Below, piece after piece: positions 37,286 to 58,461 of a DNA stretch of 64,000 nucleotides. This stretch comes from Cyanobacteria bacterium P01_A01_bin.123 (GTDB lineage: Bacteria; Cyanobacteriota; Cyanobacteriia; Phormidesmidales; Phormidesmidaceae), in NCBI GenBank assembly GCA_039815185.1, contig JBCBZT010000011.1, positions 32,001 to 96,000 of the forward strand, written 5' to 3'. The translations under genes and the position numbers were made by a program. Each line of letters opens with the position of its first letter. Positions within the stretch are counted from its first letter, which is position 1. The notes under the pieces are model-generated. The model made no database searches. It was given only the letters and a program-made list of their open reading frames with translations, and was not told the origin of the DNA.

Positions 37286-37345
37286 AGTAAATCACTCTTA
37301 CGCAACGCCTTCCATTATCAACCAATCGAGGCACGTCTGTTTACC

Positions 37346-38797: not shown

Positions 38798-38839
38798 AGC
38801 GTTGTGTTGTAAAAATTAGAACTCAAAACTCAAACTTGC

Positions 38840-38944
38840 TATAGCCGTAGCCACAAAGCTTTGTGCGCTACGGCGAGCCAGATTGCCTGTGTGCTGGGCA
38901 TCCCAGCGAGACTAAGTGCATTAAGCAATCTGGCCAGCGCTATA
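38840..38944. mobile_element. 105-bp MITE/REP-like repeat, copy E (overlaps the 3' end of the upstream CDS)
   Basis: TATAGCCGTAGCC...GGCCAGCGCTATA. Confidence 0.9.
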
Positions 38945-42121: not shown

Positions 42122-42148
42122 ATCCAGCGCCATTGCGCCTCTAGAAAA

Positions 42149-42230
42149 GTACTCCAGTGTCGCTGGGATGCTCAGCACACCAGCAATCTGACTCGCAGTA
42201 GCGCACAAAGCTTTGTGCGCTACTGCTATC
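42149..42230. mobile_element. truncated copy F of the 105-bp element
   Basis: Perfect 32-nt palindrome GCAGTAGCGCACAAAGCTTTGTGCGCTACTGC at 42195-42226. Confidence 0.8.
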
Positions 42231-42608
42231 CAGCAGAACGACTGACACCAGATCTAACACCGAAAAACAAAGGTTTCGGAACTTTTATGCGACCACCAAG
42301 GTCAAGCAGACACAATGCCAACCCAGAGCGCTGTGGCCTTGGAGCGTTGTTGGTATCAAGTCATAACCCTATCCGAAACCCATGCATTAATTCCGGCACA
42401 AGCTGGAATCTTGAACCTGAGCAACGCTAGTCATGTGACTAAAGCCGTTATGCAAACGCATAGAATTTCGCAACACTTACCTTATAAAGAGAAAACTTAA
42501 GGTAGCCAAAATAACAGTAAGCAGATTTTTTTTCGCTACATTAAATTAACTGTCAAATCGCAGCCTGATGCCGTTCAAGTTATCGATGATGTAGCGATAT
42601 GGGATGAA

Positions 42609-43790
42609 ATGATGCCTGCTGAAAATCTACCAACACAATGGCAAATTTTATTGCGATCTCTGTTGATTTTCCTAATATGGCGTTGTTCATTATATTTATT
42701 GACTTTCTTTGGCCTCCACTTGACTGAAGAATTTGATTTCGAGAAATATGGCTATGCAGAAGGGGTCATTAATGCTGGCAAAGAATGGCAAGCCTTTCCC
42801 AATCATTACTTTTTTGATAGTTTCTTTCGATTTGACAGTACCTGGTTTGACAGCATTATTCGGGGTGGATATTCTATCCAGGACTATCAAAGTAATGTTG
42901 CCTTCTTCCCTTTATATCCTTACCTATCGCGCTGGTTTGGATATGTTATAGGTAATCATTTTTTGGCTGGCTGGCTCATCTCCAATCTAAGCTTGATTGG
43001 CAGTATATTCTACATTTACCGCATTGGCTTACTTTATTTCAAGGCCAAAACAGTTAAACGTGCTCTAGTGCTCTTGCTAATATTTCCCACTTCGTTTTTT
43101 CTGAGTGCTTTTTATAGCGAGGCTTTGTTCCTCTTTACAAGTGCAGCCAGTTTTTACTACTTTCTAACTCAAAGATACAGTTGGGCTGGGATTTTAGGCA
43201 TGCTTGCAAGCCTCACTAGATTTAGTGGAATTCTTTTATTCTTTGCTTTCATTTCTGACATTGCTTACTATTGTTGGAAAGGTAAGCAAAAGCTACATCT
43301 TGAGATGATCTTCTTGACGCTGATTCCAGCAGGCGTCGTCATCTTTATGCTCATTCTCTATGTTCAAGTGGGCAATCCATTAGCATTTATAAATGCGCAG
43401 TCGAGTTGGGGCAGAGAGAAAACTTATCCTTTGCTAACACTGATTAAAACCCTAAACGAAATTAATTTTCAATTTCCGCGAGAACCTAACAACACTTTTT
43501 TGTTATTTGATTGGCTCAGTGCAGTTGGATTCTTAGCAATATCAAGCATCATGGCCTTTAAAAAATATCGATTGAGTTTATGGATTTATGCTGCTTTTAG
43601 TATCCTCTTGCCGCTGTCTACAGGCACTCTGCTTTCTATGATGCGCTTCTGTGCCGTGGTATTTCCAGTCTTCTTCTTCATTGCTGAAATGGCACGTAAG
43701 CCACTCGTCTATCAGTACTTAATTTTTACATTCACCTTCTTGCTTTCAATTTATAATCTTCGATTTATGAACTGGTTCTTAATGATTTGA
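42609..43790 (+). CDS. GT-C mannosyltransferase family (PIG-V-like) membrane protein
   Basis: RFDSTWF, AFFPLYP, FP.SFFLSAFYSEALF, SMMRF; multi-TM; AT-rich. Confidence 0.8.
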   Translation: MMPAENLPTQWQILLRSLLIFLIWRCSLYLLTFFGLHLTEEFDFEKYGYAEGVINAGKEWQAFPNHYFFDSFFRFDSTWFDSIIRGGYSIQDYQSNVAFFPLYPYLSRWFGYVIGNHFLAGWLISNLSLIGSIFYIYRIGLLYFKAKTVKRALVLLLIFPTSFFLSAFYSEALFLFTSAASFYYFLTQRYSWAGILGMLASLTRFSGILLFFAFISDIAYYCWKGKQKLHLEMIFLTLIPAGVVIFMLILYVQVGNPLAFINAQSSWGREKTYPLLTLIKTLNEINFQFPREPNNTFLLFDWLSAVGFLAISSIMAFKKYRLSLWIYAAFSILLPLSTGTLLSMMRFCAVVFPVFFFIAEMARKPLVYQYLIFTFTFLLSIYNLRFMNWFLMI

Positions 43791-43801
43791 ATTCAGTTGA
43801 T

Positions 43802-43844
43802 GTAACGGTAAGTACAAACTGCGCTTAGGGTTGCCCGCTAGATT
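43802..43844 (+). promoter_or_regulatory. NtcA-activated promoter for phyH-puuD
   Basis: GTA-ACGGTAAG-TAC (43802-43815), 23-nt spacer, TAGATT -10 box. Confidence 0.7.
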
Positions 43845-43889
43845 AGTAGACTCCGCATAGTGCTCCCTGCTCCATTACTTGCCTCACCC

Positions 43890-44786
43890 ATGACCTATCA
43901 ATCTCTCCAGCTCGCCGACAGCCAAATTCAGCAGTTTCAAGCCGACGGCTTTTTGATCTTAGAAAACTTCATCGAGATGGATTTAGTCGAGCGAGTGCGC
44001 GATCGCATCGAGCCGTTATTCCACGGCAAGTTTGAAACGGGCATCTATCCCGATGAATGGTACTGGCGACCGGGGTTGAGCCTGCCCGATGTCACCCGTG
44101 AAATCTGCAATGCTTGGAAATGCGATCACACCATTGCCAGCGTCTCCCTCTCTGCCACAGTCGGTCGTCTCAGTGCCCAACTCGCAGGTTGGCCCGGAGC
44201 CCGCATTGGTCAAGATAGCCTGTGGTATAAGCCCCCCGGTGGCGGCAAAGAGATTGCCCTGCATCAAGACGGGGCATATATCGACTATCTCGCACCCGCC
44301 GAAATGATTACCTGCTGGATTGCCCTGGATGACGTCAACCTCGACATCGGTACCCTGCAATACGTCCGTGGATCGCACCGCTGGCCTTTACTGTCTTCTC
44401 TAGAGGGTGAATTCCACGCCCCCACCAAAGACTACCGCTGGGCCATGCTAGAAACCGCTAGAGCAGCAGGCGTTAATGAACCTGAGATCGTCCCCGTCAC
44501 CATTCCCGCTGGGGGCTGTGCCTTCCACCACGGCCTCACCTGGCATGGTTCCGGCAAAAACCTCAGCCAAAGCCACCCCCGACGCAGCCTCGGCATCCAC
44601 ACCATCAGCTCCGAAGCCCACTTCAGCGAGCACCCCGCAGGCTACATTTACGGACGCTACAAACATGTCAACGACAATGTGATGGATGAATCCTTTTTCC
44701 CCATTTTGTGGACTGAGGGTGGTCATCGTTCGTCACACTTGGCGGATTACTGTAAGGACGCGATCGCGCCGTTAGCGTTGGTTTAG
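43890..44786 (+). CDS. PhyH-family Fe(II)/2-oxoglutarate dioxygenase
   Basis: GFLILENF, LHQDG (HxD), CWIALDD, WHGSGKN..RR. Confidence 0.9.
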   Translation: MTYQSLQLADSQIQQFQADGFLILENFIEMDLVERVRDRIEPLFHGKFETGIYPDEWYWRPGLSLPDVTREICNAWKCDHTIASVSLSATVGRLSAQLAGWPGARIGQDSLWYKPPGGGKEIALHQDGAYIDYLAPAEMITCWIALDDVNLDIGTLQYVRGSHRWPLLSSLEGEFHAPTKDYRWAMLETARAAGVNEPEIVPVTIPAGGCAFHHGLTWHGSGKNLSQSHPRRSLGIHTISSEAHFSEHPAGYIYGRYKHVNDNVMDESFFPILWTEGGHRSSHLADYCKDAIAPLALV

Positions 44787-44968
44787 GGAGCAGGGGCAAG
44801 GGGCGCGAGGGAAGCAAGGGGAGCAAGGGAGCAAGGGAGCAACGCAACTCTGCTGCATCTTAAACTCACCTAGAACTCTTCATAAATCTTGCTCCCCCTG
44901 CTCCTCCGCTCCCCCTACCTCTCCATCTCCCCCCCTCCGCTCCCTTGCCCCCTATCTATCCATCTCCC
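44787..44968. repeat. GGGAGCAA/TTGCTCCC inverted short-repeat tract
   Basis: Purine-rich arm and pyrimidine-rich arm between phyH and puuD. Confidence 0.55.
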
Positions 44969-44969
44969 A

Positions 44970-45695
44970 ATGCCTCCCCTGATCGGCATCACCACCTACG
45001 GACGCAATGCCCATAATCAATTTCACCTCTATGCCAACTACGTTGAAGCAGTACGCCTCGCGGGAGGTGTCCCAGTCCTGCTGCCCCCTAGTGAAGCCCA
45101 ACTAGAGGTCTTGCTAAAACGACTCGACGGCATCATTTTCACCGGGGGAGGGGATGTGTCTCCTGACTGCTTCGGTGGGGACAGCCATCCGATGATCTAC
45201 AGTTTGGATTTAGAGCGCGATCGCTTTGAGTTGCAATTCGCTAAACTTGCCCTCAATGCAAACGTGCCAATTTTGGGCATTTGCCGGGGGCTACAGGTGC
45301 TCAACTTAGCCAGTGATGGCGATAAACTGATTCCCCACGTTCCAGATGTCTTCACAACCCTGGGCCACCGCATCGAACCCTCTAATGTAGAAACGCGGGC
45401 TCAGCCGACAAACCACTGGGTACAGGTAAATCCTGAAAGCCACCTAGCCCAAATCGTTGAAGCAGAGCGTATTCCCGTTGTCTCTTGGCATCACCAGGCG
45501 ATCAAAACTGCACCACCGGGCTGGCAAGCCGTAGCCCATGCGTCGGATGGTTTGATTGAGGCGATTGAGCACCCCTATCACCCCTGGCTCCTTGCAGTTC
45601 AGTGGCATCCTGAAATGTCCATTGATGATGGGTATCAGTTGAAGATTTTTCAGGCTTTTGTCGCTGCTGCGAACGGTAATCGGCAAATGACGTAG
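44970..45695 (+). CDS. gamma-glutamyl-amide hydrolase (PuuD-like, peptidase C26)
   Basis: PLIGIT, TGGGDV, GICRGLQ, HHQA, VQWHPE; ATG at 44970. Confidence 0.9.
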   Translation: MPPLIGITTYGRNAHNQFHLYANYVEAVRLAGGVPVLLPPSEAQLEVLLKRLDGIIFTGGGDVSPDCFGGDSHPMIYSLDLERDRFELQFAKLALNANVPILGICRGLQVLNLASDGDKLIPHVPDVFTTLGHRIEPSNVETRAQPTNHWVQVNPESHLAQIVEAERIPVVSWHHQAIKTAPPGWQAVAHASDGLIEAIEHPYHPWLLAVQWHPEMSIDDGYQLKIFQAFVAAANGNRQMT

Positions 45696-45769
45696 CACTT
45701 GCTATGTTGGCTATGGCGTCTCCCGAAGGGAGAAATCCCCAAGCCAATCCCCAGCTTAATTCTGTACGC

Positions 45770-47830
45770 TCAGACCCTATCGGCGAAGTGATCCAGTAGC
45801 TCTCGGTGCAGAAAGCGATAGCTGCCGCCAACCCGCTGCAATAGGCGACGCTCTACACAGTAGTTGAGGAACTGGGCTAAGTTCCAGGGAGCGATGCCCT
45901 GCTGCCAGAGTACCCAGCGCAGGCAAACGTGCTGAGCGCAGGCCAAGCCGCCGCCAGATAAAAAACCAAAGAGCAGCGCACCAAAAATGCCGGGGAGGAT
46001 GAAGCTGGGAAAGATTTGCCAAAGCGTACTTAAAATCGCTTGTCCACTCTCTCCCTCAGCAACACCTTGGGCAACAGTTGAAGGAAGTTCGCCAAGACTT
46101 GCAAGAATGATGCCAAAGGGATAACTGAGGACTGTTGTCCATAGACAGCTTTTCAGAGAATTCCAGATGCCTTGATTGGGGTGTGATCGCACTTGTAAAT
46201 CTTGCTTCAGCCCTCCAATCAGCCCGAAAATCAGTCCTACAATCAGCCCTACAATCAGCCCTCCAATCAGCCCTCCAATCAGCCCTCCAATCAACCCTCT
46301 AATCAGCCCTCTAATCAGCCCTACAATCAGCCCTACAATCAGCCAACCTTTCAAACTGTCTAAAATTTCTCGTCGCACCTCGTATGACATCGAAATTTTG
46401 AACGTCTCAACAGAGGCGATATCATCCAGCCATCCAATCAGCCATCCAATCAGCCCTACGATCAGCCCTCCAATCAGCCCTACGATCAGCCCTCCAACCA
46501 GCCCTAAAATCAACCCTAAAATCAGCCCTAAAATCAGCCCTAAAATCAGCCCTAAAATCAGCCGATATTGCCGTCTAGCTTGCTTTGCCTCTAGCCAGCT
46601 TGGCTGTATCTGTTCAATCAGCAGTTCCACCCGGTTGGCTTGCTGCAACTGTCGCGCAATCCAGGCTAGGGGCTGCTGAGTGCGTCGCCGATTAGGTTCC
46701 TGTGCCAGGGTTGGGTAAGCCCAGCCTTTTTTCGATAAATCTTCCCGACGATTGCTTTCCCGCACTTCGTGCGACAACTGCCAGTCAATATACTGGCGGA
46801 TCAACTCTGTTTTATTTTCAAAGGGCGCTTTCGGGTCGTAAGTCCGCGCTGCCAGCGCCACGAACAGCGGTACCCGCAGCAGCCCCGGATCCCCCTCTGC
46901 GGTTGGCTCCAACAGCTTTCCGAGCCGAGGATTGGTGGCAATCGCCGCCCACAGCGGCGACTGCCGCGCCGCCAAAAAGATTTGGATCTGCTCATCGGTC
47001 AACAGCTCTAAGCGGATTGCCCCGTTCAGCGTGTTCAGCTTAATGCCCGCCTGAGTAAATTCCTTGGTTCGGCAACACACCACCAGATGGGGATACTGCC
47101 CCGCAAATTCCTTCAGTTTTTGAGTGCATTTTTGCTGCCGTTCCATTCCCAGCTCATCCAGGCCGTCCATCAGCGGCAGCAGCGCCTGCTGATCCAGCCA
47201 TCGTTCATACAGCTTGGCTTTGCGATTGCCCCCGTGCTGCTCATACAGTTGCTCAATCAGCCAATCGCGAATGCTTTGATTATCTTTCCGCCAAGTCGAG
47301 AGTTCAAACACCACCGGAATCACCGTTTGCGGCTGAGCCAGGGCACCGCACATCAGTTGCTCCGCTAACCCCAGCAGCGCCGTCGTTTTCCCCGCACCGG
47401 GGGTCCCCAGAATCAGCAGCTTCCGGGCGATGTCCTCCCGCCCAAAGGTTTCAATCAAAAGCTGACGCGGATCGAGGGTGTCCTCTGGCTTCCCCTCAAT
47501 CTGCAACACTCGCTCCGCTTCCAACGGCGACCGCCCCACCCAACTCAGCTGCTCCCGAAAGTTGACGGACATCAGTGCCTTATCCCGACCCAACGTATCC
47601 ATCAGCCGTTTACGAATCTCAGGCAGTTGCTTTTCCTTCAGCAGCCGCATTGCCCAGTGCCAGTCCACCCCTGATGATGCAGACTGCCCGAACTGCACAA
47701 GAGCCTTATTGATCGTGACCTGATTATCGTGGCTATTTTCAAAGCTAACGGCATCTCCCCCGGCCTGGGTGAGCTGAACCTGGCTATTCTGAATTTGGCT
47801 ACCTTCGATGTTTTGGTCTTGCCCTGCCAT
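45770..47830 (-). CDS. NACHT NTPase with multi-TM Gly-Leu-Ile repeat region and Q/N-rich N-terminal motif
   Basis: GTPGAGKTT Walker A, LMDGLDEL Walker B, GGSYRFLHRELLDHFA C-terminus. Confidence 0.9.
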   Translation of the reverse strand: MAGQDQNIEGSQIQNSQVQLTQAGGDAVSFENSHDNQVTINKALVQFGQSASSGVDWHWAMRLLKEKQLPEIRKRLMDTLGRDKALMSVNFREQLSWVGRSPLEAERVLQIEGKPEDTLDPRQLLIETFGREDIARKLLILGTPGAGKTTALLGLAEQLMCGALAQPQTVIPVVFELSTWRKDNQSIRDWLIEQLYEQHGGNRKAKLYERWLDQQALLPLMDGLDELGMERQQKCTQKLKEFAGQYPHLVVCCRTKEFTQAGIKLNTLNGAIRLELLTDEQIQIFLAARQSPLWAAIATNPRLGKLLEPTAEGDPGLLRVPLFVALAARTYDPKAPFENKTELIRQYIDWQLSHEVRESNRREDLSKKGWAYPTLAQEPNRRRTQQPLAWIARQLQQANRVELLIEQIQPSWLEAKQARRQYRLILGLILGLILGLILGLILGLVGGLIVGLIGGLIVGLIGWLIGWLDDIASVETFKISMSYEVRREILDSLKGWLIVGLIVGLIRGLIRGLIGGLIGGLIGGLIVGLIVGLIFGLIGGLKQDLQVRSHPNQGIWNSLKSCLWTTVLSYPFGIILASLGELPSTVAQGVAEGESGQAILSTLWQIFPSFILPGIFGALLFGFLSGGGLACAQHVCLRWVLWQQGIAPWNLAQFLNYCVERRLLQRVGGSYRFLHRELLDHFADRV
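46206..46563 (-). repeat. two blocks of 12-bp coding tandem repeats (GLIx)n
   Basis: ATCAGCCCTCCA/ATCAGCCCTAAA units at about 46206-46345 and 46427-46563. Confidence 0.85.
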
Positions 47831-47884
47831 TATTGCCGCTTATCCTGCCTGCTTTCTCTGGTGCCCTTGCCCCTTACCGTTGAG

Positions 47885-48367
47885 CTACAGCCCAAAGAAC
47901 GTAACCGCTACCCCAATCCACGGCGCAACCGCCTTAAACACCTCCGTCCCCGTTTGCCAAAGGCTCTTACCCGCTTCAGTGCTGTCCTTCAGCGTTTTCA
48001 GCGTTTCGCTAACCTGCTTCAGGTTTTGTCCCACCAGTTCCTTATTGGGGGTTTCCTTTCCCGCCGCTCGCTTCGCCGGACGCAGATAATCCAGCAGTTC
48101 CTCCTGCATCGCTGGGGTGAGGGCAGTGCCTTTCACAGCCGCTTCCAATTGTTCAATCAAGCCAACCACCTCTGCGCCGGTTAGCCCCTGCTGCTGAGCT
48201 TGCAGATCTCCAGTTTGGTTCTGCTCAAGGTCCCGCCCCGCTTGGCCCATTTGCACCATGCCCCCGGTTAGCGTGACGTTGCTGAGGCTTTGGGACTGAT
48301 CGGGCTTACCTGATTTCGGAGACTTCTTCCAAAACATTTTTTGCGAGCCGCTAGTTTGTCCCATCAT
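47885..48367 (-). CDS. small protein: N-terminal Q/G-rich motif + helical domain with hydrophobic C-terminus (start may be 48337)
   Basis: 160-aa ORF co-oriented and ending 54 bp upstream of the NACHT gene. Confidence 0.75.
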   Translation of the reverse strand: MMGQTSGSQKMFWKKSPKSGKPDQSQSLSNVTLTGGMVQMGQAGRDLEQNQTGDLQAQQQGLTGAEVVGLIEQLEAAVKGTALTPAMQEELLDYLRPAKRAAGKETPNKELVGQNLKQVSETLKTLKDSTEAGKSLWQTGTEVFKAVAPWIGVAVTFFGL

Positions 48368-48446
48368 ATTCGCTTTTTAAGAGCGTCCATTAGACAAACT
48401 GCGATCTTCAATAATCTTGTGCTTGAAGGTCATTTGTGGCGATCGC

Positions 48447-48703
48447 AACGGCAAACAATCTCCAGCCCCCAAACCATAGCCGATAAAATCGTCCTCATCC
48501 CCGAATCAGAAGAGGATATCGACCCAGGTGACGATCCCACAGAAACTGTAATTGAGGGTATTCGTGAAGGCTGGCAGCAAGCTCTTACCGCCGAAGTGTA
48601 ACCTGTTTCAAAACTTTGGGACAGAATGGAGTCGAATGATTCACCAATTCAAGTTGGCTTCACGAAACGCTTTGAGAGGGCGTTTGAAAAGCGCGATCGC
48701 TGA
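48447..48703 (+). pseudogene. degraded type II toxin-antitoxin pair (antitoxin fragment + RelE/HigB-like toxin 5' fragment)
   Basis: DDPTETVIEGIREGWQQALTAEV*PVSKLWD, then MESNDSPIQVGFTKRFER* truncated. Confidence 0.55.
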
Positions 48704-48924
48704 GATGTTGCAACCATAGACACTCTAAATCATGAAGGTTATCGAAAAGACATCTACAACTTTGAAGCTAAAGTCGGCAAAAACGGCTTACCCCCTACTC
48801 GACTAGCCGTTCACGCCACGATTCTTCCTCAGCCTTTGACTCGTTTCTGGAGCCCTCAAGCGATGTCTGTCAGGGCTGCATTCTGCTAACGCTATAATCC
48901 AGGTACCTCGTTCCTGTTCTTTGT

Positions 48925-49509
48925 ATGGCCTTAATTACAGCCAAGCGCTTCAGCGTAGAAGAGTACCATCGCTTAACAGAGCTGGGCTTTTTTCAGAGTG
49001 ATGAGCGGCTTGAGTTGATACACGGGGAAATTATCCAGATGGCAGCCAAAGGTGTTGCCCATGAAGTGTTTTTGACACGCTTGCTGAGAGAGCTGCCCAA
49101 ATGTTTGGCAGAAACGGTTACCCTCCGTTGCCAATCCCCCATCACCTTGTCACCAGACAGCGAACCCGAGCCAGACTTTGCGATTGTCCGCAATCGAGAC
49201 GATGATTACTTTGAGGGGCACCCTCAGCCAGCCAATATCCTATGGCTAATCGAGGTATCTGACTCATCACTCGCTTATGATCAGTCGGTCAAGCTGGCGA
49301 TGTATGCTGCCCACGGCATTACACACTATTGGATTTTCAACTTACTGGATAGCGTTCTAGAGTGCTACAGCGACCCCTATCAAAATCAGCAAGGGACTTG
49401 GGCCTATCGGATGAAGCGAATTTATCTGCCGACAGAAACAGTTATGATTCCCCAGCTGGATACTCAATCATTGCTGGCGCTGGGTAAGGTATTTCCACCA
49501 AATCAATAA
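48925..49509 (+). CDS. Uma2 family endonuclease
   Basis: FSVEEYH, ELIHGEII.M, PEPD, IEVSDSS, YWI. Confidence 0.9.
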   Translation: MALITAKRFSVEEYHRLTELGFFQSDERLELIHGEIIQMAAKGVAHEVFLTRLLRELPKCLAETVTLRCQSPITLSPDSEPEPDFAIVRNRDDDYFEGHPQPANILWLIEVSDSSLAYDQSVKLAMYAAHGITHYWIFNLLDSVLECYSDPYQNQQGTWAYRMKRIYLPTETVMIPQLDTQSLLALGKVFPPNQ

Positions 49510-49517
49510 GCAGAATA

Positions 49518-50099
49518 TCAGCCCCTGCGTTTCAACCAATGAAAAATCATCTCAGCAGAAAGCTGTAAGTCAACATCTGGCAAACAGGGCAGTAAGCTAG
49601 CCCCGCTTAATAACGTTGGCAGACGATTGGGTTGATAGCAAAAAACCGATTTTTCTTGGGGGTCAAGCAACCAGCCTAATCGCGTTCCGTGCTCAAGACA
49701 GTGCAGAATATTGCCAGTGACTCGGGTTTGACTTTGATTCGGCGATAAAATCTCAATCACCCAGTCGGGCGCGAATTTAATGCCACCACTAGAAATCTCG
49801 CCATCCTCGTCAACTGGAATTTGATCACTCGCTGCGACGACAATATCGGGCACAATCGAGCGTCCCCCGAACGTACACCGTAGCTCTGGAAATGCTTCAT
49901 AAGCACTCTCTAAAGCGTCAATGGCTGCAACTAGTTTTTTCTGCAAGAGGCTGTGTTTACTGCCACCCATCGGTTTTTGGCTGATTTTGCTGTTGCCGTA
50001 TTCCCAAGCAGGCGATTCGTCAATATAAGGCAGTTGTAAGAATGCCTGGAGTGTCATGGATTGGGGAGGAGCAACCGTCATCTCAAGCCTCTCAATCAT
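49518..50099 (-). CDS. Uma2 family endonuclease
   Basis: FPELRCTFGGRSIVPD, APDWVIEILSP, GWLLDP. Confidence 0.9.
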   Translation of the reverse strand: MIERLEMTVAPPQSMTLQAFLQLPYIDESPAWEYGNSKISQKPMGGSKHSLLQKKLVAAIDALESAYEAFPELRCTFGGRSIVPDIVVAASDQIPVDEDGEISSGGIKFAPDWVIEILSPNQSQTRVTGNILHCLEHGTRLGWLLDPQEKSVFCYQPNRLPTLLSGASLLPCLPDVDLQLSAEMIFHWLKRRG

Positions 50100-50109
50100 T
50101 ACCGTAAGA

Positions 50110-51510
50110 TTAACGCCTTTTCAGATGCCAACCGCGAGGTTGCGTAAATGTGCGAATGCCTTCTAAAGAAAGCGTTGCCCCCAACCCAGAATGTCCCCGC
50201 CCCGTCCACGGCAGCGGTGGACTCACCCGATCGCAGCAGTTCCAGTAGGCCGTACCGCTATTCACCTGGCCCAAAATTTTCAGGGCGCGATCGCGCTCAG
50301 CCCCATACACCGCAGCCGTCAACCCATAGGGCGTATCGTTCATTAACGCGATCGCTTCGGCATCACTGTCCACCTTTTGAATGCCGATCACCGGGCCAAA
50401 AGTTTCATCTCGCATCACCGCCATGTCATGATTGACACCCGTCAACACCGTGGGTGCAAAGTACCAACCTTTCCCATCGATGGGGTGACCGCCAGTCTGT
50501 AAAGTAGCGCCTTGGGCGATCGCATCTTTGACCTGTCGTGTTAGCTCGCTCAGATGGGGCTTGCGGCTGACCGGGCCGAGATAGGTCTTGGCATCGCTCG
50601 GGTTACCCATCACAAACCCATGAACCGTATCCAAAAACGCCTCTAAAAAAGCATCGTAGACATCAGCATGGACATAGATGCGCTCTACCGCACAGCAGCT
50701 TTGGCCGTTGTTATAAAAGGCCCCATCTGCCAGGGCAGCGGCCACAGCCGCGACATCGGGCACATCGTCACGCACATAGGCCGGATCTTTGCCGCCCAGT
50801 TCAAGCTGCACCTTGATCAGTTGGGCGGCAGCAGCAGCGGCAATCTTTTTGCCCGTGGCGTAAGACCCCGTGAAGCAGATCGCGTCTAAGGGTTGCTCCA
50901 GCAAGGCAGCACCTGTCAAACCACCCCCAATGACTGGGATGAAAACATCTTCGGGAACGCCTGCGGTGTGGAGCAACTCAGCGATCGCCAACCCGGTCAA
51001 TATCGAAAACTCGGACGGCTTGTACAAAACCGTATTCCCTGTCAGCAGCGCCGGAATAAACACGTTGGAACCCACAAAATAGGGGTAGTTCCAGGCAGAA
51101 ATGTTGGCAACTACCCCGAGTGGGTCATGGGTAATCACCTCTTCTAACGCCGCCATACCGGGGATGGTGACAGCATCCTGCTTAACGATCTCTGGGGCGA
51201 TTACCTGAGCCACATGATGGGTAAAAAAGTTGATCCGCTCTACCGTGGTGCCGATTTCAGCATTGGCCTGGGTGATGGGTTTGCCCGTTTCTGAAGTTAG
51301 GGTGGCGGCTAATGCAGTCTGTTGCTGCGTGAGTAAACCTTGAAACCGGGCGATCGCGTCAATTCGATCTGCCAATGGACGAGCTGTCCAAGTGGGTTGA
51401 GCCGCTCTAGCTGCCGTGACTTTGCGTTGCACAGCGGCGGCATCGTCTATGGGGACTTCTTTAACCAGCGCCTCAGTGGCTGGGTTGATGATCGAAAGGA
51501 CGTCACTCAT
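50110..51510 (-). CDS. aldehyde dehydrogenase
   Basis: AWNYP, KPSE, FTGS, LELGGKDP, GQSCC, ETFGP. Confidence 0.93.
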   Translation of the reverse strand: MSDVLSIINPATEALVKEVPIDDAAAVQRKVTAARAAQPTWTARPLADRIDAIARFQGLLTQQQTALAATLTSETGKPITQANAEIGTTVERINFFTHHVAQVIAPEIVKQDAVTIPGMAALEEVITHDPLGVVANISAWNYPYFVGSNVFIPALLTGNTVLYKPSEFSILTGLAIAELLHTAGVPEDVFIPVIGGGLTGAALLEQPLDAICFTGSYATGKKIAAAAAAQLIKVQLELGGKDPAYVRDDVPDVAAVAAALADGAFYNNGQSCCAVERIYVHADVYDAFLEAFLDTVHGFVMGNPSDAKTYLGPVSRKPHLSELTRQVKDAIAQGATLQTGGHPIDGKGWYFAPTVLTGVNHDMAVMRDETFGPVIGIQKVDSDAEAIALMNDTPYGLTAAVYGAERDRALKILGQVNSGTAYWNCCDRVSPPLPWTGRGHSGLGATLSLEGIRTFTQPRGWHLKRR

Positions 51511-52706
51511 GCGGCAAAAGCATCTTCATAGATGGCATAAAAGTCGGCTTTAGACACGGGACGCGGATTCAGCGGGTGGCAACCATCCTGTAACGCCACG
51601 CCCACTAATCGATCCGCTACATCAGCAGGCACCCCTAACTCACTTAGGCTAGCGGGGATGCCAATGGCTTGACGCAGGGTGATGATCCAGTCGATAAAGG
51701 CCTCGCCTGAGGTTGCCCCTGGTGTCACGATCCGCGCCATGCGTAGAAATCTTTCGGGTTCCACGGGCAGGTTAAACCGCATCGCCGCTGGCAGCATCAT
51801 GGCGTTAGCCAATCCGTGGTGGGTGTCGCACACTGTCGAGAGGGCATGGGCACAAGAATGAGTGACGCCGAGCCCTTTTTGAAACGCGATCGCCCCCATC
51901 ATCGACGCATTCAACATGCCGCCCCGTGCGCTCAAATGGGCGTTAGCTTCTGCTGCGCTCAGCGTTTCCCCAGCTGCTAGTCTCTGGGCAAACATCACGC
52001 AATCTTTAAGATGCTCAGCCACTAGGTAGATGCCCTCTAAGGCAATCCCGTCGCAGATGGGGTGAAAGCCTTTGGCCAGAAATGCCTCAATCAGATGAGT
52101 CAGCGCATCCATACCAGTTGCAGCGGTAATTTTGGCGGGTAGCCCCAACAGCAATTCTGGATCGGCCAGCACGACTTTAGGCAGGAGTTGTGGGTCAAAA
52201 ACGATCTTTTTCGCGTGGGTCTGATCATCAGAAATCACCGCACTGCGACCCACTTCGCTACCCGTCCCTGCCGTAGTTGGAATCGCCACGATCGCTGGAA
52301 CGCTTTGATCCACCGGACGGGCATCGGGGCGACCGTCTTCGTATTCAAACAGGTGACCGGGGTGATTAGCCATCAGCGCGATCGCCTTAGCCACATCCAT
52401 CGGTGCCCCACCGCCAACCGCAACGATGCCGTCGGCCTGATGTTGCCGATAGGCGGCTAGCCCTGCGTTGACCTGAGAGACCACTGGGTTGCCCCAAACC
52501 CCGCTAAATGTGTTCACTTTCAAGCGGGATAGGGAATCTACCAGGGGATTAAACCAGGGGAGTTGAGACACGTCGCGATCGCTGACCAACAGCGGCCGCT
52601 GTATACCCAATTCAGTCACCGTGTCTAACAGCCTGCTCCGCACCCCTGCCCCAAAGTGAATCGTGGTGGGAAAGCCGTAGGTATGGACCAAACTAGCAGT
52701 TGACAT
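51507..52706 (-). CDS. iron-containing alcohol dehydrogenase
   Basis: GGGAPMD, PTTAGTGSE, DALTH, H..AH, HHG; 4-bp overlap with ALDH. Confidence 0.92.
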   Translation of the reverse strand: MSTASLVHTYGFPTTIHFGAGVRSRLLDTVTELGIQRPLLVSDRDVSQLPWFNPLVDSLSRLKVNTFSGVWGNPVVSQVNAGLAAYRQHQADGIVAVGGGAPMDVAKAIALMANHPGHLFEYEDGRPDARPVDQSVPAIVAIPTTAGTGSEVGRSAVISDDQTHAKKIVFDPQLLPKVVLADPELLLGLPAKITAATGMDALTHLIEAFLAKGFHPICDGIALEGIYLVAEHLKDCVMFAQRLAAGETLSAAEANAHLSARGGMLNASMMGAIAFQKGLGVTHSCAHALSTVCDTHHGLANAMMLPAAMRFNLPVEPERFLRMARIVTPGATSGEAFIDWIITLRQAIGIPASLSELGVPADVADRLVGVALQDGCHPLNPRPVSKADFYAIYEDAFAA

Positions 52707-54018
52707 AATGATCCATCTCCCAGGGAGTTATTTGGGCACTGTACTGACGCCACTCTTCGGACTTAAATTCAAAAAACGTCTTCGTGGCAGCTTTGCCGAG
52801 GGATTCCATCAGCAGTTCATCCTGTTTCAGACACTCAATCGCTTCCAACAAGTTCGAGGGGAGCGTTTCTAAATGGGGAAACTCACTGCCTCGGGTAAAC
52901 AGGTTTTCATCAATGCGTGGCCCGGGCATCATCTGCTGCTCAATGCCATCGAGCCCAGCCACCAGCAGCCCAGCTAAGGCTAGATAAAGATTGGTCGAGC
53001 CATCGATTACACGGCACTCAAAGCGTCCTGCCTCTGGAATTCGCAACATATGCGTGCGATTGTTGCCCCCGTAGGAAATGTAGCGTGGGCTCCAGGTGCT
53101 GCCAGAGGTCGTCATCGTCGCTCCCAGCCGCCGATAGGAGTTAACCGTCGGGCTAAACAGGGCTAAAAGCCCCTTAGCATGGGCCAAAACCCCCGCTAAA
53201 AACTGGTAGCCCGCCGGAGATAGCCCGCCCTCATCAGCGCCTGCCTCAAAGGCATTCGTCTCCCCTTGCCAAAGGCTGTTGTGAACATGGGCACCGTTGC
53301 CAGTCAGGTGGCTAAAGGGTTTGGGCATAAACGTTGCCGTCAATCCCCGTTGCTCTGCCAGGGTCTTGACCATGTACTTAAAGAACACATGGCGATCGGC
53401 AGTCACCCTAGCATCGCTGTAGGTCCAGTTGATTTCAAATTGACCGTTGGCATCTTCGTGATCGCACTGGTAAGGTTCCCAGCCCAGATCTTCCATGTAG
53501 GTGACTAGCGTCGAGATAAAGTCATACTGCCGCATCAAATTGAGCTGGTCGTAGCAGGGGCGTTCCGCCGTATCTTTGCTATCTGCGATGGTGTAGCCCG
53601 TCTCAGTTGCCTTGAGCAAGAAAAACTCGGCCTCAACCCCAGCCTTGTAGCTGTACCCCATCTGAGTGCAGCGCGCCAACGCCCGATTGAGAATCATCCG
53701 GGGAGCCGCCTCAAAGGGTTCATCATCAAAGTACACATCGCTCGCCACCCAGCCCACCGTTGGCTGCCACGGCAGCACAATCAACGACTCAGGATCGGGA
53801 ACTGCCGCAATTTCAGCTGAATCTGGCCCTAAACCTAGGTTGGAGGCAAAGGACGCAAAAAAAGCGCCGTCTTTTTCAACCGAGGCAATCTTAGCTGCGG
53901 GTACCAGCTTGGCCCGTGTCCCCCCCAAAAGATCGGTGTAGGAAACCAGAAAAAACTTTAGCCCCAAGGCTTTCGCTTTTTCGGCAAGGGATGTCTGCTG
54001 CGGCAGGGTTCCGACCAT
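52693..54018 (-). CDS. GlnT/GmaS-like glutamine synthetase-family gamma-glutamylamide ligase
   Basis: RAKLVPA, GVEAEFFL, DHEDANGQFE, ATFMPKPF, GNGAHVH, NRTHMLR; N-terminus resembles GmaS/type III GS. Confidence 0.85.
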   Translation of the reverse strand: MVGTLPQQTSLAEKAKALGLKFFLVSYTDLLGGTRAKLVPAAKIASVEKDGAFFASFASNLGLGPDSAEIAAVPDPESLIVLPWQPTVGWVASDVYFDDEPFEAAPRMILNRALARCTQMGYSYKAGVEAEFFLLKATETGYTIADSKDTAERPCYDQLNLMRQYDFISTLVTYMEDLGWEPYQCDHEDANGQFEINWTYSDARVTADRHVFFKYMVKTLAEQRGLTATFMPKPFSHLTGNGAHVHNSLWQGETNAFEAGADEGGLSPAGYQFLAGVLAHAKGLLALFSPTVNSYRRLGATMTTSGSTWSPRYISYGGNNRTHMLRIPEAGRFECRVIDGSTNLYLALAGLLVAGLDGIEQQMMPGPRIDENLFTRGSEFPHLETLPSNLLEAIECLKQDELLMESLGKAATKTFFEFKSEEWRQYSAQITPWEMDHYVNC

Positions 54019-54084
54019 GGTTGACGTCTCCAGTTTGAGTATTTCCTCAGGAGTTCATCTTTATGGGCGAAAACACAACGTTTT

Positions 54085-54098
54085 GTATATTCCAATAC
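54085..54098 (-). promoter_or_regulatory. NtcA box upstream of the GS-like operon
   Basis: TTTT-GTA-TATTCCAA-TAC-AAAA extended palindrome; AAAGAT after a 22-nt spacer on the minus strand. Confidence 0.7.
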
Positions 54099-54293
54099 AA
54101 AAATTGCAAAATCTAATCGAAATCTTTTTAGCCAAGACATTTGAGAAACTGACTGCGATCGCACGATATCTCGGACAAAAAGTTGATATTTTTCGTAACT
54201 ATGAATTTGAGCATTTTCGGAGATGCAAAAGTACCTCATTTTTGTGTAATCCCAAAGGGAGAGGACTCAATTAAGAGACTTTTCTAGTGATTG

Positions 54294-54335
54294 GTAGCAG
54301 CTAATACAATCTTTTGGTGTCAGAAAATGCAGACT
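54294..54335 (+). promoter_or_regulatory. NtcA box upstream of amt
   Basis: GTA-GCAGCTAA-TAC, 22-nt spacer, CAGACT (imperfect -10). Confidence 0.65.
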
Positions 54336-54635
54336 CGTTAACAATTAATTCTCCTCAGCACCGAGACGCAGTCTATGTCTGAAGCTGCTTCATGTCTTTG
54401 CGTCCATCAATTTGTGTAAGCCCGATGTGTGACCAGCTTGTCGGCTAGTTTGCCAAATTTGCCAAAGAATCAGGGAGTCTATCTAAGAATTCCCCCTGCG
54501 TTTGATTGAGAAGATTGGCGTTACATCATTCGTGAGGTTAGAAGTATCTAAAACTCTGAGCAGAAGTTTATGTCAGAAAAATTAGCGGTTTGAAGCCTTG
54601 TTTTTGTTGTGGGGCTGTTTGTTAACTAGGAGGGG

Positions 54636-56027
54636 TTGAATATGGAGCCTGAAGCACAAGCGTTTCTAGGTACCTTTGTCACGGAGACCTACTATTATTG
54701 GGCCTCTGTGTTTATGTTGATTATTCACGTAGGCTTCTTGGCCTATGAGGGGGGAGCATCTCGCGCCAAAAATGTTTTGGCGACGATGGTTAAAAACCTA
54801 TTAACCCTTTCGGTGGTAGGGCTTTCATTTTACTTTTTTGGCTGGTGGGTCTATGCCGGCTTTTCGATATTCCCTCGATTTGGCGGAATTATCGGGCCTT
54901 GGACAACTGCCTTGCCTGAGAATCTCGGTACCCTCGACGGTGAGGGCCTGCTTGGCTTTGTCGCCACAACCTATCCCTGGTCTGCCGAGATGGGGCCAAA
55001 CATTGCTGACAACCTAACGGGTGTCTTCTGGTTTGCCTTTGCCCTGTTTGCCATGACGACCGCTTCGATTATGTCTGGGGCAGTCATTGAGCGGATTCGT
55101 CTCGGGGCTTACTTGATTTTGGCCGCGATTTTAGGCGGCTTCCTTTGGGTTGTGGCTGGTTCCTGGGGGTGGAACTACTGGGGTTGGTTCAACACCATGG
55201 GCTATCACGATTTCGGTTGTTCTGCCGTAGTTCACGGCGTTTCTGGATTCTTTGCCCTCGGGGTTCTGATCAATCTCGGCCCCCGGATTGGTAAGTTTGA
55301 TGCCCAAGGCAATCCCCGCGAAATCCTACCCCATAATCTACCGCTGACGATGGTCGGCCTAATGCTGATTTTCGTTGGATTCTATGCGTTTCTGGCGGCC
55401 TGTGTCATCTTTGGCCCTGGTGCCCTGGTGGAATCGACCATCTACGGTTCTCCCATGACACTGGCTTCGATTGGGGTGAATACGACTCTGGCACTTTGCG
55501 TTGGTATTATTGGGGCCTATCTGGGTTCCAAGGGCGATCCGTTTTTTACCATTTCAGGTGGACTAGCGGGGATTATCTCCGTGGGTGCGGGGCTTGATCT
55601 GTACGCACCGCCATTAGTGCTGCTGATTGCTTTTATCGGTGCTTACACCATGCCGTTTGTCGGTAAGTTCGTGGAAAAAATGGGCATCGACGATGCCGTT
55701 GGAGCCTTTGCCGTCCATGGCTATTGTGGTGTGATTGGGTCTATGGCAGTGGGTGTAATGGCCACGGGGTACACCGTAGGCAATTACCCACCAACGAACT
55801 TCATGGCCCAACTGGTGGGTACCTTCTTGTGCACCATAGTGTTGGGTCTAATTCCCGGCTATGGGTGTAGCTGGGTGCTGAAAAAGCTGAATCTACTGCG
55901 AGTCCCGCCTGAAGAGGAAATTGAAGGGCTTGACCTGGGTGACTTTGGACTTGAGGGCTATCCCGAATACACCCTCAAACTTGAAGAATCGGTGTCTGAA
56001 GGACATCTACATGTCTCAGTGAAGTAG
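54636..56027 (+). CDS. ammonium transporter family protein (atypical Amt)
   Basis: SGAVIER, HDFG....VH, LGPRIGKF, PHNLP, IDDAVGAFAVHG; AGGAGG RBS. Confidence 0.9.
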   Translation: MNMEPEAQAFLGTFVTETYYYWASVFMLIIHVGFLAYEGGASRAKNVLATMVKNLLTLSVVGLSFYFFGWWVYAGFSIFPRFGGIIGPWTTALPENLGTLDGEGLLGFVATTYPWSAEMGPNIADNLTGVFWFAFALFAMTTASIMSGAVIERIRLGAYLILAAILGGFLWVVAGSWGWNYWGWFNTMGYHDFGCSAVVHGVSGFFALGVLINLGPRIGKFDAQGNPREILPHNLPLTMVGLMLIFVGFYAFLAACVIFGPGALVESTIYGSPMTLASIGVNTTLALCVGIIGAYLGSKGDPFFTISGGLAGIISVGAGLDLYAPPLVLLIAFIGAYTMPFVGKFVEKMGIDDAVGAFAVHGYCGVIGSMAVGVMATGYTVGNYPPTNFMAQLVGTFLCTIVLGLIPGYGCSWVLKKLNLLRVPPEEEIEGLDLGDFGLEGYPEYTLKLEESVSEGHLHVSVK

Positions 56028-56123
56028 AGGATAGCGGCTCTATAGACCTTTGAGTATGGCTATGGTAGCGACCCTACAAGAAAACACTGGTTCTGGACAA
56101 GATGATTTGAGGATAGATGCATT

Positions 56124-56588
56124 ATGTTTGTTTGGTTATTAGGAGCGGCAAGCCCGTTTAAAACCTGGGAAGAGTTTGAAGGCGCAATAGATGGGCCGAC
56201 AGGCGGTGCAATTTATACATTTGCCGATCGCCCTGCTCTGATTGGCATCATGGTTTTTGTTGCAGCCCTAGTGTTTTTGTATTTCATCTACGCGTCGTTC
56301 AACATCAGCAGCGGCAAGTCAACAGCAAAAAGCCCACCCGTGCTGGGCATGTTGATTGTTGCGGGTGCGGCTTCAGCAATGGCGTCTCTCTATGAGGGTT
56401 TTGCAGAGCGTGGTGCGGTACAGCAGGCGTCTCGGTCTGGTGAGGCGTCTCAGGTTACGAAGCAATCGAGTAAGGTGCCGATGGCGCTGTTGGGCATGAC
56501 AGGTTTGGCTGGTTTGTCGGGCCGGAAGCGGCGGACTAAGGCGAGTGCTGCAAAGCAATCATCTCGACGCATCCGTTTGCATCGTTAA
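56124..56588 (+). CDS. hypothetical membrane protein downstream of amt
   Basis: 154-aa ORF, 2-3 hydrophobic segments, basic tail. Confidence 0.65.
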   Translation: MFVWLLGAASPFKTWEEFEGAIDGPTGGAIYTFADRPALIGIMVFVAALVFLYFIYASFNISSGKSTAKSPPVLGMLIVAGAASAMASLYEGFAERGAVQQASRSGEASQVTKQSSKVPMALLGMTGLAGLSGRKRRTKASAAKQSSRRIRLHR

Positions 56589-56625
56589 ATCGTTAAGTTG
56601 AAGCTGAAAAGCTTGGTGAGCTAGG

Positions 56626-56674
56626 GCACTTGGGCACCGTCAAGGTTAATTGGCGAGGCTCAGGTGCTTTTTTT
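56626..56674 (+). terminator. probable terminator of the amt operon
   Basis: GCACTTGGGC...GCTCAGGTGC stem followed by T-tract. Confidence 0.5.
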
Positions 56675-57363
56675 AGTGGATAGCTGACTATTGCAGGAAG
56701 TGTACCTAACAGCCATCAATGCCTGACTACCGCCTCTCCAAAATGATCGGAGAATTTGTTTTGCCTAAATTGAGGGTAGTCCCTAAGAGGTAAGGATAGA
56801 GCATCTGATGCATGGTAATAAGGCGATGCAACCCTTAGTAAAATTGAGATTAAGTTTGAGTTAATGTTGCCATCGTAGTGGCTTCAAGAAAAAAACGGAA
56901 GCCGATCTCACCGGGTAATCCTCGCCACAATCAAGTTGCTGATAGTCTTGATCGGTCTGTAAAATTTCGAAACGACGGGCCTTACGCTGATTCTTATTTT
57001 TGAGACGTTCTCCTTTATGACATTTGCCACAATCGGGTTGTATGTGTAGATAAGCTAGCTTGATTAGGCTGCATCGCGACATGCTTTGTCTTATGGTTTG
57101 CAGGGGCAGACTGCAATTGTTGGCGATCGCGTCGATCCCAAGGCTAGACATGGTGCATAAGCCAACTATTCATCACGATTTGCGTGTTCGACTCTCAGAT
57201 TTGAATGGGGTAAAGGACTGGGAAGTTATGTACCAGCCCTACAAGGGGAGTCCTTTCCCAGTCCTAATTTCAGTCACTCACATTCTCAACTCGGAGAACC
57301 AGATCAAGGCTCTGTATTGTTCAGTGCGTCAATAGTCGCCATCATACTAACAGCGGCCTAACG

Positions 57364-58461
57364 TTAGGTCGGTAAGGTGAAATAGAAAGTCGTCCCCTCT
57401 GTTGGCTTAGAATCCACCCAGATGCGTCCACCGTGACTTTCAATAATCTTCTTACAGATGGCTAAGCCAATGCCAGTGCCAGGGTATTCGGATTTCGTAT
57501 GCAATCGCTGAAAAATCTGAAAGATCTGGTCAAAATGCGCTGATTGGATGCCAATGCCATTGTCATGAACCCCAAAGCGCCACCCATGCGCTTGATGCTC
57601 TATTGAAATCCTCACATGGGGAGGCTGTTCTGGACGCTTATATTTAAGCGCATTACTGATTAGGTTTTGAAAGAGTCGGATTAGCTGGGACTCATTGGCG
57701 TAGATTGTGGGGAGTTCATCAGTAGTAATGACGGCGTGGCTATTGTCGATGATGGGTTGTAAACCAGCGAGCACCTGTTTGATCACATCGTTGCAGTCTG
57801 TTGGCACATCCAGCTGCTGATCAGATGTGCCAACCTTAGCGTAATCCAGTAAATCTTGAATCAATTGCGACATGTGCTTACTGGCACTGATAATGTGATC
57901 GATGTACTGGTTGATGGGCTGCTCAGGGCGATCGCGATAGAGACGAGCCAGAATTTGGGCAAACCCCATAATGCCTTGGAGGGGTTGCTTAAGGTCATGG
58001 GAGACTACATGGGCAAATTGCTCAAGCTCCTGATTAGATCGGATTAACTCATCATTCAAGTGTTGGAGTTTATCTAAATTTTGCTGTCGCTCGATAGCAT
58101 AGTGAATCGCTCGAACTAACCAAGATCTTTGGATTTCACCTTTAATCAGGTAGTCTTGGGCACCTTCTCGCAGGGCGGCGATCGCTGTCTCTTCATCATC
58201 TAACCCCGTCAAGACTAAAATGGGCACCTCTGAATTTGCCCCATACATTCGCTTAACGGTATTTAACCCCTGGCTATCTGGTAAGGACAGATCCAACAAA
58301 ATCGCATCAAACGGGATCTCACTCAGACTACCAATGGCTTCCCCAAGGCGCTCAACATGGGTTAGCTCAATATGAGCCACATTGGAGAGAAATTTCCGCA
58401 AGAGATAGGCATCTGCAGCATTATCTTCGACTAAAAGGACTTGGATAACGTCATTGCTCAC
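57364..58461 (-). CDS. receiver domain + histidine kinase
   Basis: LLVEDN, LLDLSLPD, VSHDLKQPL H-box, GTGIGLAI G-box. Confidence 0.92.
   Translation of the reverse strand: MSNDVIQVLLVEDNAADAYLLRKFLSNVAHIELTHVERLGEAIGSLSEIPFDAILLDLSLPDSQGLNTVKRMYGANSEVPILVLTGLDDEETAIAALREGAQDYLIKGEIQRSWLVRAIHYAIERQQNLDKLQHLNDELIRSNQELEQFAHVVSHDLKQPLQGIMGFAQILARLYRDRPEQPINQYIDHIISASKHMSQLIQDLLDYAKVGTSDQQLDVPTDCNDVIKQVLAGLQPIIDNSHAVITTDELPTIYANESQLIRLFQNLISNALKYKRPEQPPHVRISIEHQAHGWRFGVHDNGIGIQSAHFDQIFQIFQRLHTKSEYPGTGIGLAICKKIIESHGGRIWVDSKPTEGTTFYFTLPT

Follow-up and report, generated by a model that had tools for sequence, protein, structure and literature searches.

A probable NtcA-controlled gene module for the scavenging of small amines by gamma-glutamylation in cyanobacteria

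A 64,000-nt stretch (the window) of contig JBCBZT010000011.1 from the filamentous organism Cyanobacteria bacterium P01_A01_bin.123 carries genes for a glutamine synthetase (GS)-like ligase, an iron-containing alcohol dehydrogenase (Fe-ADH, ADH), an aldehyde dehydrogenase (ALDH), an atypical Amt-family channel (amt) with a 154-aa membrane protein, a PhyH-family dioxygenase (phyH) and a PuuD-like hydrolase (puuD). These genes form a real and conserved amine-scavenging module that is probably under the control of NtcA. We hold with high confidence to its general logic, the NtcA-activated scavenging of nitrogen from small amines by gamma-glutamylation, and lean toward a dual role, judged from sequence, in which ethanolamine and methylamine would both be scavenged. 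Genes were checked from open reading frames (ORFs) and Pfam, and relatives are kindred cyanobacterial genomes or loci. The genes, their overlaps and three NtcA-type boxes lie where an original prediction had placed them, and Pfam concurs (Table 1). The ORF coordinates also bear out the predicted operon, in which the ligase and Fe-ADH genes overlap by 14 nt and the Fe-ADH and ALDH genes by 4 nt.

The ligase is a member of the GmaS family. It passed TIGR03105 (584.8 against a cut-off of 469.6), and its nearest solved structure was 7CQL (E 5.7e-157), the GmaS of Rhodovulum sp. 12E13 (RhGmaS; PMC7948447). The amine pocket of GmaS (Y147, Q175, D177, E179, E186, N188, K30', A48' and W300) is kept in the ligase, where K37, Y156, Q184, D186, E188, E195, N197 and the flap residue W309 match RhGmaS in the alignment to 7CQL. 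All 80 relatives have the same pocket residues, apart from the A48' position, where A, C or S occurs. Of the three ligase types that had been proposed, only GmaS was upheld by profile scores, identity and tree. The ligase fell below the PuuA model (250 against 650), a separate and more PuuA-like ligase is encoded elsewhere in the genome (435 bits on that model), and identity to the ethanolamine-glutamylase/GlnA4 branch, which is distant in the tree, was only 29% in a comparison that did not contain GlnA4 itself. A quick tree of 42 proteins placed the window ligase in a clade with a support of 100, sister to canonical-type GmaS. This clade comprised 80 loci with 70-89% identity, 75 titled cyanobacterial and five titled 'uncultured bacterium'. 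The loop that corresponds to the Asp50' loop of GS carries Asn (N60 in the window ligase) in place of Trp in 79 of 80 members and Gly in place of Asp in all 80, and a Cys (C185) directly precedes the catalytic Asp in 80 of 80. The changed loop may widen the ligase pocket.

Seven GS-like loci were counted in the genome, one of them a separate canonical GlnA. Comparison with that GlnA confirmed that FASFA replaces FDGSS and that TWSP replaces the EAP flap; Ala stands where GS has Asp50', and the flap contains a Trp. Because the ligase missed the canonical GS I model TIGR00653 (297 against 429) and lacks both Asp50' and the flap Glu, the view that it is not an ammonium GS was sustained. An auxiliary ammonium GS induced under nitrogen starvation ('type III GS/GlnT'), with incidental neighbours, would suit the NtcA box, the NCBI name of TIGR03105 and the weak activity of RhGmaS on ammonium (Km 8.7 mM; PMC7948447). 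However, with these two residues missing, a canonical GlnA present and the linkage to glutamine amidotransferase (GATase), ADH and ALDH genes conserved, this explanation is very improbable.

Control by NtcA is indicated by the conservation of the boxes. The pattern GTA-N8-TAC occurred 11 times in the window, where 4.69 occurrences were expected and 1 of 100 shuffles had as many, and 722 times in the whole genome. With so mild an excess in the window and so many copies in the genome, the pattern alone is weak evidence; conservation was therefore tested, and conservation in relatives carries the case. Boxes were scored within 350 nt upstream, with expectations from base shuffles, in sets of kindred genomes that include the window itself and some genomes twice. 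A box was found in 71 of 84 upstream regions of the ligase (7.5 expected), 18 of 20 of amt (2.0 expected) and 8 of 18 of phyH (about 2 expected; one mis-cut region was dropped from 19), and in none of the 43 ADH and 34 ALDH regions, which precede internal genes. The three boxes that had been reported, one for each unit, are thus present and kept in relatives. A conserved TTTACT hexamer follows the box by about 22 nt in most ligase promoters and is weak in this genome. The arrangement is that of an NtcA-type promoter, with a conserved GTA-N8-TAC about 22 nt before the -10 element. In S. elongatus, glnT belongs to an NtcA iModulon (PMC11420160). Sigma-70 and terminator scans gave no excess above shuffled sequence, and an Rfam scan of window positions 42000-58000 found no RNA family.

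The distribution of the genes indicated which members of the module are constant. In a phylum-wide sample, 27 of 401 genomes had a protein that passed TIGR03105, in at least four contexts. Neighbours at the 80 clade loci, many of which are short contigs, included ADH (37), ALDH (28), amt (8), phyH (8) and puuD (3), and a class I GATase other than puuD lay beside the ligase in 30. Among 173 genomes of the order, the ligase was found in 99, amt in 96, a phyH ortholog in 94 (nine paralog-only genomes were dropped from 103), ADH in 72 and puuD in 14; a 500-aa GS-like ligase was present in 91, a Tdm-like gene in 77 and a desaturase-like gene in 119. The 99 ligase genomes included 86 with amt, 81 with phyH and 10 with puuD. 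Cultured carriers include Halomicronema sp. CCY15110, Leptolyngbya sp. PCC 7375 and Nodosilinea nodulosa PCC 7104. The proposed co-occurrence of phyH with the operon therefore stood and that of puuD did not; puuD was rejected as a fixed member and is interchangeable, another class I GATase usually adjoining the ligase. Phi coefficients were 0.86 for phyH-amt, 0.83 for phyH-500-aa ligase, 0.77 for phyH-Tdm-like, 0.73 for ligase-amt, 0.70 for phyH-ADH, 0.64 for ligase-phyH and 0.61 for ligase-ADH. PhyH tracks amt, the 500-aa ligase and the Tdm-like gene more closely than it tracks the window ligase.

A desaturase-like gene, together with a MetX-like hydrolase, was considered as a further partner of the ligase. 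It occurred in 89 of the 99 ligase genomes, but also in 30 genomes without a window-type ligase. Cyanobacterial GmaS proteins of the canonical type without mgs (L032-L050, L094, L162, L172) are flanked by the desaturase-like gene (15 of 36 loci) and a MetX-like hydrolase of the PRK07581 type (13 of 36), and the window ligase clade often has this pair as neighbours too, together with a GntR gene. The pair is a candidate Mgs-independent route for gamma-glutamylmethylamide.

The Amt channel is atypical. It scored below the canonical ammonium transporter model TIGR00836 (218.6 against 343.3). It keeps the twin His, and the GW-x-GFN-x-x-S residues of the genome's four canonical Amts, which we take to be ammonium-site residues, are replaced as they are in Rhodobacterales methylamine-cluster Amts. 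Its nearest plasmid relatives (41-49% identity) adjoined gmaS-mgs or tmm-tdm-dmm in two of the three records opened. A 58-59-aa protein encoded next after each Rhodobacterales methylamine-cluster Amt resembles the N-terminus of the 154-aa protein, with seven invariant columns across eight sequences; the 154-aa protein itself had no Pfam or NCBIfam match. The Amt and its small partner thus belong to the subfamily of the proteobacterial methylamine clusters. Amt-type uptake fits only very small amines.

The dehydrogenases provide the link to ethanolamine. Relatives of the Fe-ADH were found at 73 metagenomic loci (49-59% identity), of which 48 had an upstream GS-like gene of the ethanolamine-glutamylase branch, 52 an ALDH gene and 33 a PuuD-like gene. 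The ligase of one such locus had 11ZS and 5DM3 as its best PDB matches, the latter presumably a Chromohalobacter enzyme. The best plasmid matches of ADH and ALDH include operons ordered RpiR, amidohydrolase, TRAP, ligase, ALDH, ADH, which is the gene order of the Phaeobacter MED193 ethanolamine operon (PMC10132767); three further plasmid matches of ADH lay in unrelated or unannotated surroundings. We infer that the ADH/ALDH pair stems from ethanolamine-type glutamylation operons with a ligase of another branch, and that a GmaS-type ligase took the place of the earlier one without a change in the order ligase-ADH-ALDH. The locus thus combines a coupled Fe-ADH and ALDH homologous to an ethanolamine operon with a predicted gamma-glutamyl hydrolase; the latter scored below the cut-off of the PuuD model PRK11366 (105.9 against 266) and has intact Cys and His-x-Glu motifs. 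These findings support the predicted logic of ligase, dehydrogenase, ALDH and hydrolase, and the kinship of the pair makes ethanolamine, as suggested originally, a good candidate substrate.

The window locus is half of a larger cluster. In five relatives (G407, G412, G556, G427 and L075), genes for a solute-binding protein and a Tdm-like protein lie divergently before phyH. Here these two genes are located on another contig (C76, 26085-47042; L170, L066), interrupted by unrelated genes and accompanied by genes for a trimethylamine monooxygenase (Tmm), a MOSC protein, the 500-aa GS-like ligase and a copper amine oxidase. NtcA-type boxes precede both the binding protein gene and the 500-aa ligase gene. 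The Tmm passed NF058570 (787.5 against 675). The Tdm-like protein fell below NF053776 (836 against 1100) and lacks the first 150-180 residues; the Cys and His motifs of the aligned part are kept. A 160-aa gene that follows the Tdm-like gene had no Pfam or NCBIfam match, and its working label 'SoxG-like' was unsupported.

The earlier finding that the window lacks N-methylglutamate synthase genes extends to the whole genome, in which no MgsB was found and MgsA-like (27-30%, partial) and MgsC-like (33-37%) matches were weak. MgsB was detected in 1 of 19 relatives and in the positive control. In one genome, G420, a single nucleotide separates a clade ligase from the soxD-like and soxA-like genes that follow it, mgsABC is present, and neither ADH nor the desaturase-like gene was found. 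This genome suggests that members of the window clade can act as genuine GmaS enzymes, and it points to methylamine. Two cyanobacterial genomes (L046, L047) were seen to carry complete gmaS-mgsABC with sarcosine-oxidase-like genes. PF11927, the Dmm catalytic family, was found in 20 of the 173 genomes, this one included. A second TIGR03105-passing ligase, on contig C101 (L060 2140-12410), lies amid genes for an arginase-family protein, HypA, HypB, an NMT1-type ABC transporter and a MetX-like hydrolase, joined in L059, L061 and L062 by a Rieske oxygenase. None of 29 upstream regions of C101-type ligases had an NtcA box, and a methylguanidine-type substrate is a guess.

In the proposed mechanism, the Amt-type channel and its partner would admit a small amine, which the GmaS-type ligase, probably of broad range, would trap with ATP as a gamma-glutamylamide. 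Where the amine is an amino alcohol, most likely ethanolamine, Fe-ADH and ALDH would oxidise its free end to give gamma-glutamyl-glycine, from which the PuuD-like hydrolase or another GATase would free glycine and recycle glutamate. These later steps are proposed because the ADH/ALDH pair appears to descend from ethanolamine-type operons. Methylamine supplied by the Tdm-like/Tmm module, which is adjacent in relatives and on C76 here, is probably a further substrate of this ligase.

Several observations weigh against this dual role. Co-occurrence is inflated by the kinship of the genomes. Fe-ADH is missing from 32 of the 99 ligase genomes, and the amino-alcohol branch is therefore regarded as optional. 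ADH and ALDH are only about 40% and 38% identical to their counterparts in the RpiR-TRAP ethanolamine operons, and a quick tree gave no supported link between the window ADH clade and ethanolamine-operon ADHs. An ethanolamine-permease homolog was found at only 2 of the 73 ADH loci (one passing TIGR00908), and a search of this genome for ethanolamine transporters gave no Eat match and an EtoX-like match of 25% at best. Ethanolamine is not among the substrates in the RhGmaS table of PMC7948447, and according to that paper no residue of the Asp50' loop contacts methylamine. Of 20 related genomes only 4 had Tmm, which was rejected as a fixed member.

ADH and ALDH scored best on the NCBIfam models for 4-hydroxybutyrate dehydrogenase and succinic semialdehyde dehydrogenase, without reaching either cut-off. 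These C4 families, the PuuD-like hydrolase and the copper amine oxidase found in many relatives' clusters could instead indicate a longer amino alcohol or diamine (aminopropanol, aminobutanol or putrescine), with the copper amine oxidase acting as PuuB. Such a substrate is rather unlikely, given the low score of the ligase on the PuuA model, the separate PuuA-like ligase of this genome, an Amt suited to very small amines and a roughly 70-fold lower affinity of RhGmaS for propylamine (PMC7948447). We also consider it unlikely that the ligase is a plain GmaS for methylamine only, with ADH and ALDH removing aldehydes (formaldehyde, copper amine oxidase products) and not acting on glutamylated substrates. 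In distant lineages without the methylamine genes the ADH-ALDH pair still follows a GS-like ligase gene, and at this locus its translation is coupled to that of the ligase, even though the pocket residues identical to those of RhGmaS, the G420 context, the Amt subfamily and the presence of Tmm and Tdm-like genes would all agree with such a role.

Alongside the dual scavenging of ethanolamine and methylamine, PhyH may contribute an oxygenase step. The metal triad of PhyH (H125, D127, H219) is intact, and K114 and R232 are invariant or candidate 2-oxoglutarate ligands. A structural model (pLDDT 92.2) had SnoN, MysH and PHYHD1 as its nearest folds, at about 20% identity and none of them close, so that PhyH has both the HxD...H triad and the fold of an Fe(II)/2-oxoglutarate dioxygenase. 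Plasmid searches returned no match at 1e-30 and only 25-31% matches at 1e-12. The PhyH subfamily adjoins three ligase clades. Contig C92 (L065 9090-13275; also L174) carries a GS-like ligase gene, two PhyH paralogs (46-50% identical to that of the window) and a GATase-like gene. An apparent GS-PhyH fusion (P0239) was a singleton full of frameshifts and was not counted.

PhyH most likely oxidises a gamma-glutamylated amine of the wider cluster. Oxygenases that act on gamma-glutamylamides are known from the Ipu (PMC6776027) and aniline (PMC11335346) pathways, and MysH has been proposed to hydroxylate the alpha carbon next to nitrogen, cleaving the N-C bond and releasing glyoxylate (PMC10666671). 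PhyH was present in 75 of the 77 Tdm-like genomes and PF11927 in 15. On the basis of these precedents, these counts, the ligase-PhyH-PhyH-GATase run and the three ligase clades, we tentatively suggest that PhyH is a gamma-glutamylamide N-dealkylase. By analogy, it would hydroxylate the carbon bonded to the amide nitrogen and convert gamma-glutamyl-dimethylamide, gamma-glutamyl-methylamide or gamma-glutamyl-glycine to a less alkylated amide or glutamine plus an aldehyde, standing in for the missing Dmm and Mgs. If true, nitrogen from trimethylamine N-oxide, methylamines and ethanolamine would flow into glutamine independently of Dmm and Mgs in filamentous cyanobacteria, and N-dealkylation with several GS-like ligases would be paid for by the 2-oxoglutarate that accumulates under nitrogen starvation.

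A linear, isopropylamine-like route would place PhyH earlier, with an alkylamine such as ethylamine glutamylated, its terminal carbon hydroxylated by PhyH in place of the Ipu P450, and the product converted to an amino acid by ADH, ALDH and hydrolase. This route would draw on the nearly equal acceptance of ethylamine (Km 58 uM) and methylamine (27 uM) by RhGmaS (PMC7948447), on the logic of Ipu (PMC6776027), on the presence of PhyH in 69 of 72 ADH genomes and on a phyH-ligase-puuD run in L053. Relatives of the 500-aa ligase lie beside a P450 and a ferredoxin on a Ruegeria plasmid, and not in two other records opened. The linear route nevertheless seems quite unlikely, as 25 phyH genomes lack ADH, no PhyH homolog was found at any of the 73 distant ADH loci, and the co-occurrence of PhyH with ADH or the window ligase is looser than that with amt, the 500-aa ligase and the Tdm-like gene.

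The arrangement of the locus was compared with that of relatives. G407, G412 and G556 share a gene order that runs from phyH and puuD through the 154-aa gene and amt, both on the opposite strand, to ligase, ADH and ALDH; the first four genes follow the same order in G427, of the same genus, and in L075, which lacks puuD. Since puuD or phyH adjoins the 154-aa gene in these five relatives, the block of five genes from the 154-aa gene to ALDH is inverted in the window. The original prediction of a pathway split by an inserted block was thus correct as to the insertion and not as to a simple split. The NACHT and Uma2 genes, which were not found between these genes in relatives' loci, appear to fill the new junction. 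An assembly error is a possible source of the apparent inversion. Paralogs of the block genes are dispersed across the genome, and a repeat scan of the block revealed no terminal repeats and only a 12-nt coding tandem repeat (46160-46620), which gives Gly/Leu/Ile-rich transmembrane repeats in the NACHT protein.

Table 1. Coordinates of the cluster and its control elements in the window.
Feature	Coordinates	Strand	Description
NtcA-type box of phyH-puuD	43802..43815	n/a	TAN3T hexamer at 43839-43844, 23 nt downstream
phyH	43890..44786	+	PhyH-family Fe(II)/2-oxoglutarate dioxygenase, PF05721; uncharacterised subfamily
puuD-like	44970..45695	+	Peptidase C26 / PuuD-like gamma-glutamyl hydrolase, PF07722
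Unrelated block	45770..50099		NACHT membrane protein, 160-aa protein, two Uma2-family genes
ALDH	50110..51510	-	Ethanolamine-operon type; proposed gamma-glutamyl-aminoaldehyde dehydrogenase
Fe-ADH	51507..52706	-	Iron-containing alcohol dehydrogenase; proposed gamma-glutamyl-aminoalcohol dehydrogenase
Ligase	52693..54018	-	GmaS-family gamma-glutamylamide synthetase, TIGR03105 and 7CQL; cyanobacterial clade, changed Asp50'-equivalent loop
NtcA-type box of ligase operon	54085..54098		-10 hexamer weak in this genome
NtcA-type box of amt	54294..54307		Conserved CAnACT hexamer 22 nt downstream
amt	54642..56027	+	Atypical Amt-family channel, PF00909
154-aa gene	56124..56588	+	Small membrane protein, putative Amt partner

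The left break of the cluster is marked by a mannosyltransferase-like membrane gene of low GC content (about 40%; 42609-43790), which ends 11 nt before the phyH box. Further left (36821-39769, minus strand) lie a sodium/solute symporter-like gene, a metallophosphoesterase gene and an ORF that we take to be glutathione-peroxidase-like. The gap between phyH and puuD (44790-44970) is of low complexity, purine-rich and then pyrimidine-rich, and could pair as an imperfect hairpin. In G556 (L159 9500-12400) about 3 kb separates phyH from puuD, and the repeated-looking ORF text there is suggestive of CRISPR-like repeats.

The module is a new combination of known chemistry in a new host group. A literature search that did not reach most subscription papers found no account of this route in cyanobacteria and no characterisation of the window ligase clade or of Tmm/Tdm-linked amine use in them, and according to a review, microalgae are usually unable to metabolise methylamines (PMC7574528). 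With a ligase under a conserved NtcA promoter in more than half of the genomes of the order, cyanobacteria of mats and biofilms may be direct competitors for ethanolamine and methylated amines. The clade is relevant to gmaS marker surveys and represents a naturally occurring form of GmaS whose substrate loop has changed, and the cluster contains a candidate for an oxygenase step that would be new.

Among known systems, the GmaS/N-methylglutamate pathway (PMC7948447) shares a ligase that passes TIGR03105 and keeps the checked ATP, glutamate, metal and amine residues, but the window ligase lies in a sister clade with a changed N-terminal loop and a Cys by the catalytic Asp, it is coupled to ADH and ALDH, and mgsABC is absent here and in 18 of 19 relatives. 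The gamma-glutamyl-ethanolamine pathway of MED193 (PMC10132767) and of Streptomyces GlnA4 (PMC6529630), for which Chromohalobacter is cited as another host in PMC10132767, likewise combines ligase, Fe-ADH, ALDH and hydrolase; the window differs in its 29%-identical ligase, in Amt in place of TRAP or Eat, in PuuD/GATase in place of formylglutamate amidohydrolase and in NtcA in place of RpiR. The PuuA putrescine pathway is set apart by the ligase and hydrolase, both of which score below its cut-offs. Ipu and the aniline and naphthylamine systems Atd and Npa (PMC6776027, PMC11335346) share a ligase, a candidate glutamylamide oxygenase and a GATase-type hydrolase, although the candidate oxygenase of the window is of the PhyH 2-oxoglutarate type rather than a P450 or Rieske enzyme, and would act on glutamylamides by analogy. 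MysH, a cyanobacterial PhyH-type enzyme (PMC10666671, PDB 9C9N), is among the best sequence and fold matches of PhyH, but at about 20% identity and in a different pathway it offers a chemical analogy and not evidence of orthology. The Roseobacter trimethylamine pathway (Tmm, Tdm, Dmm, GmaS, Mgs, Mgd) has in common with the cluster Tmm, a Tdm-like protein, the Amt subfamily with its partner and a GmaS-family ligase, from which the cyanobacterial version departs in its shortened Tdm-like protein, the absence of detectable DmmA, the scarcity of PF11927 in Tdm-like genomes and the mostly absent Mgs.

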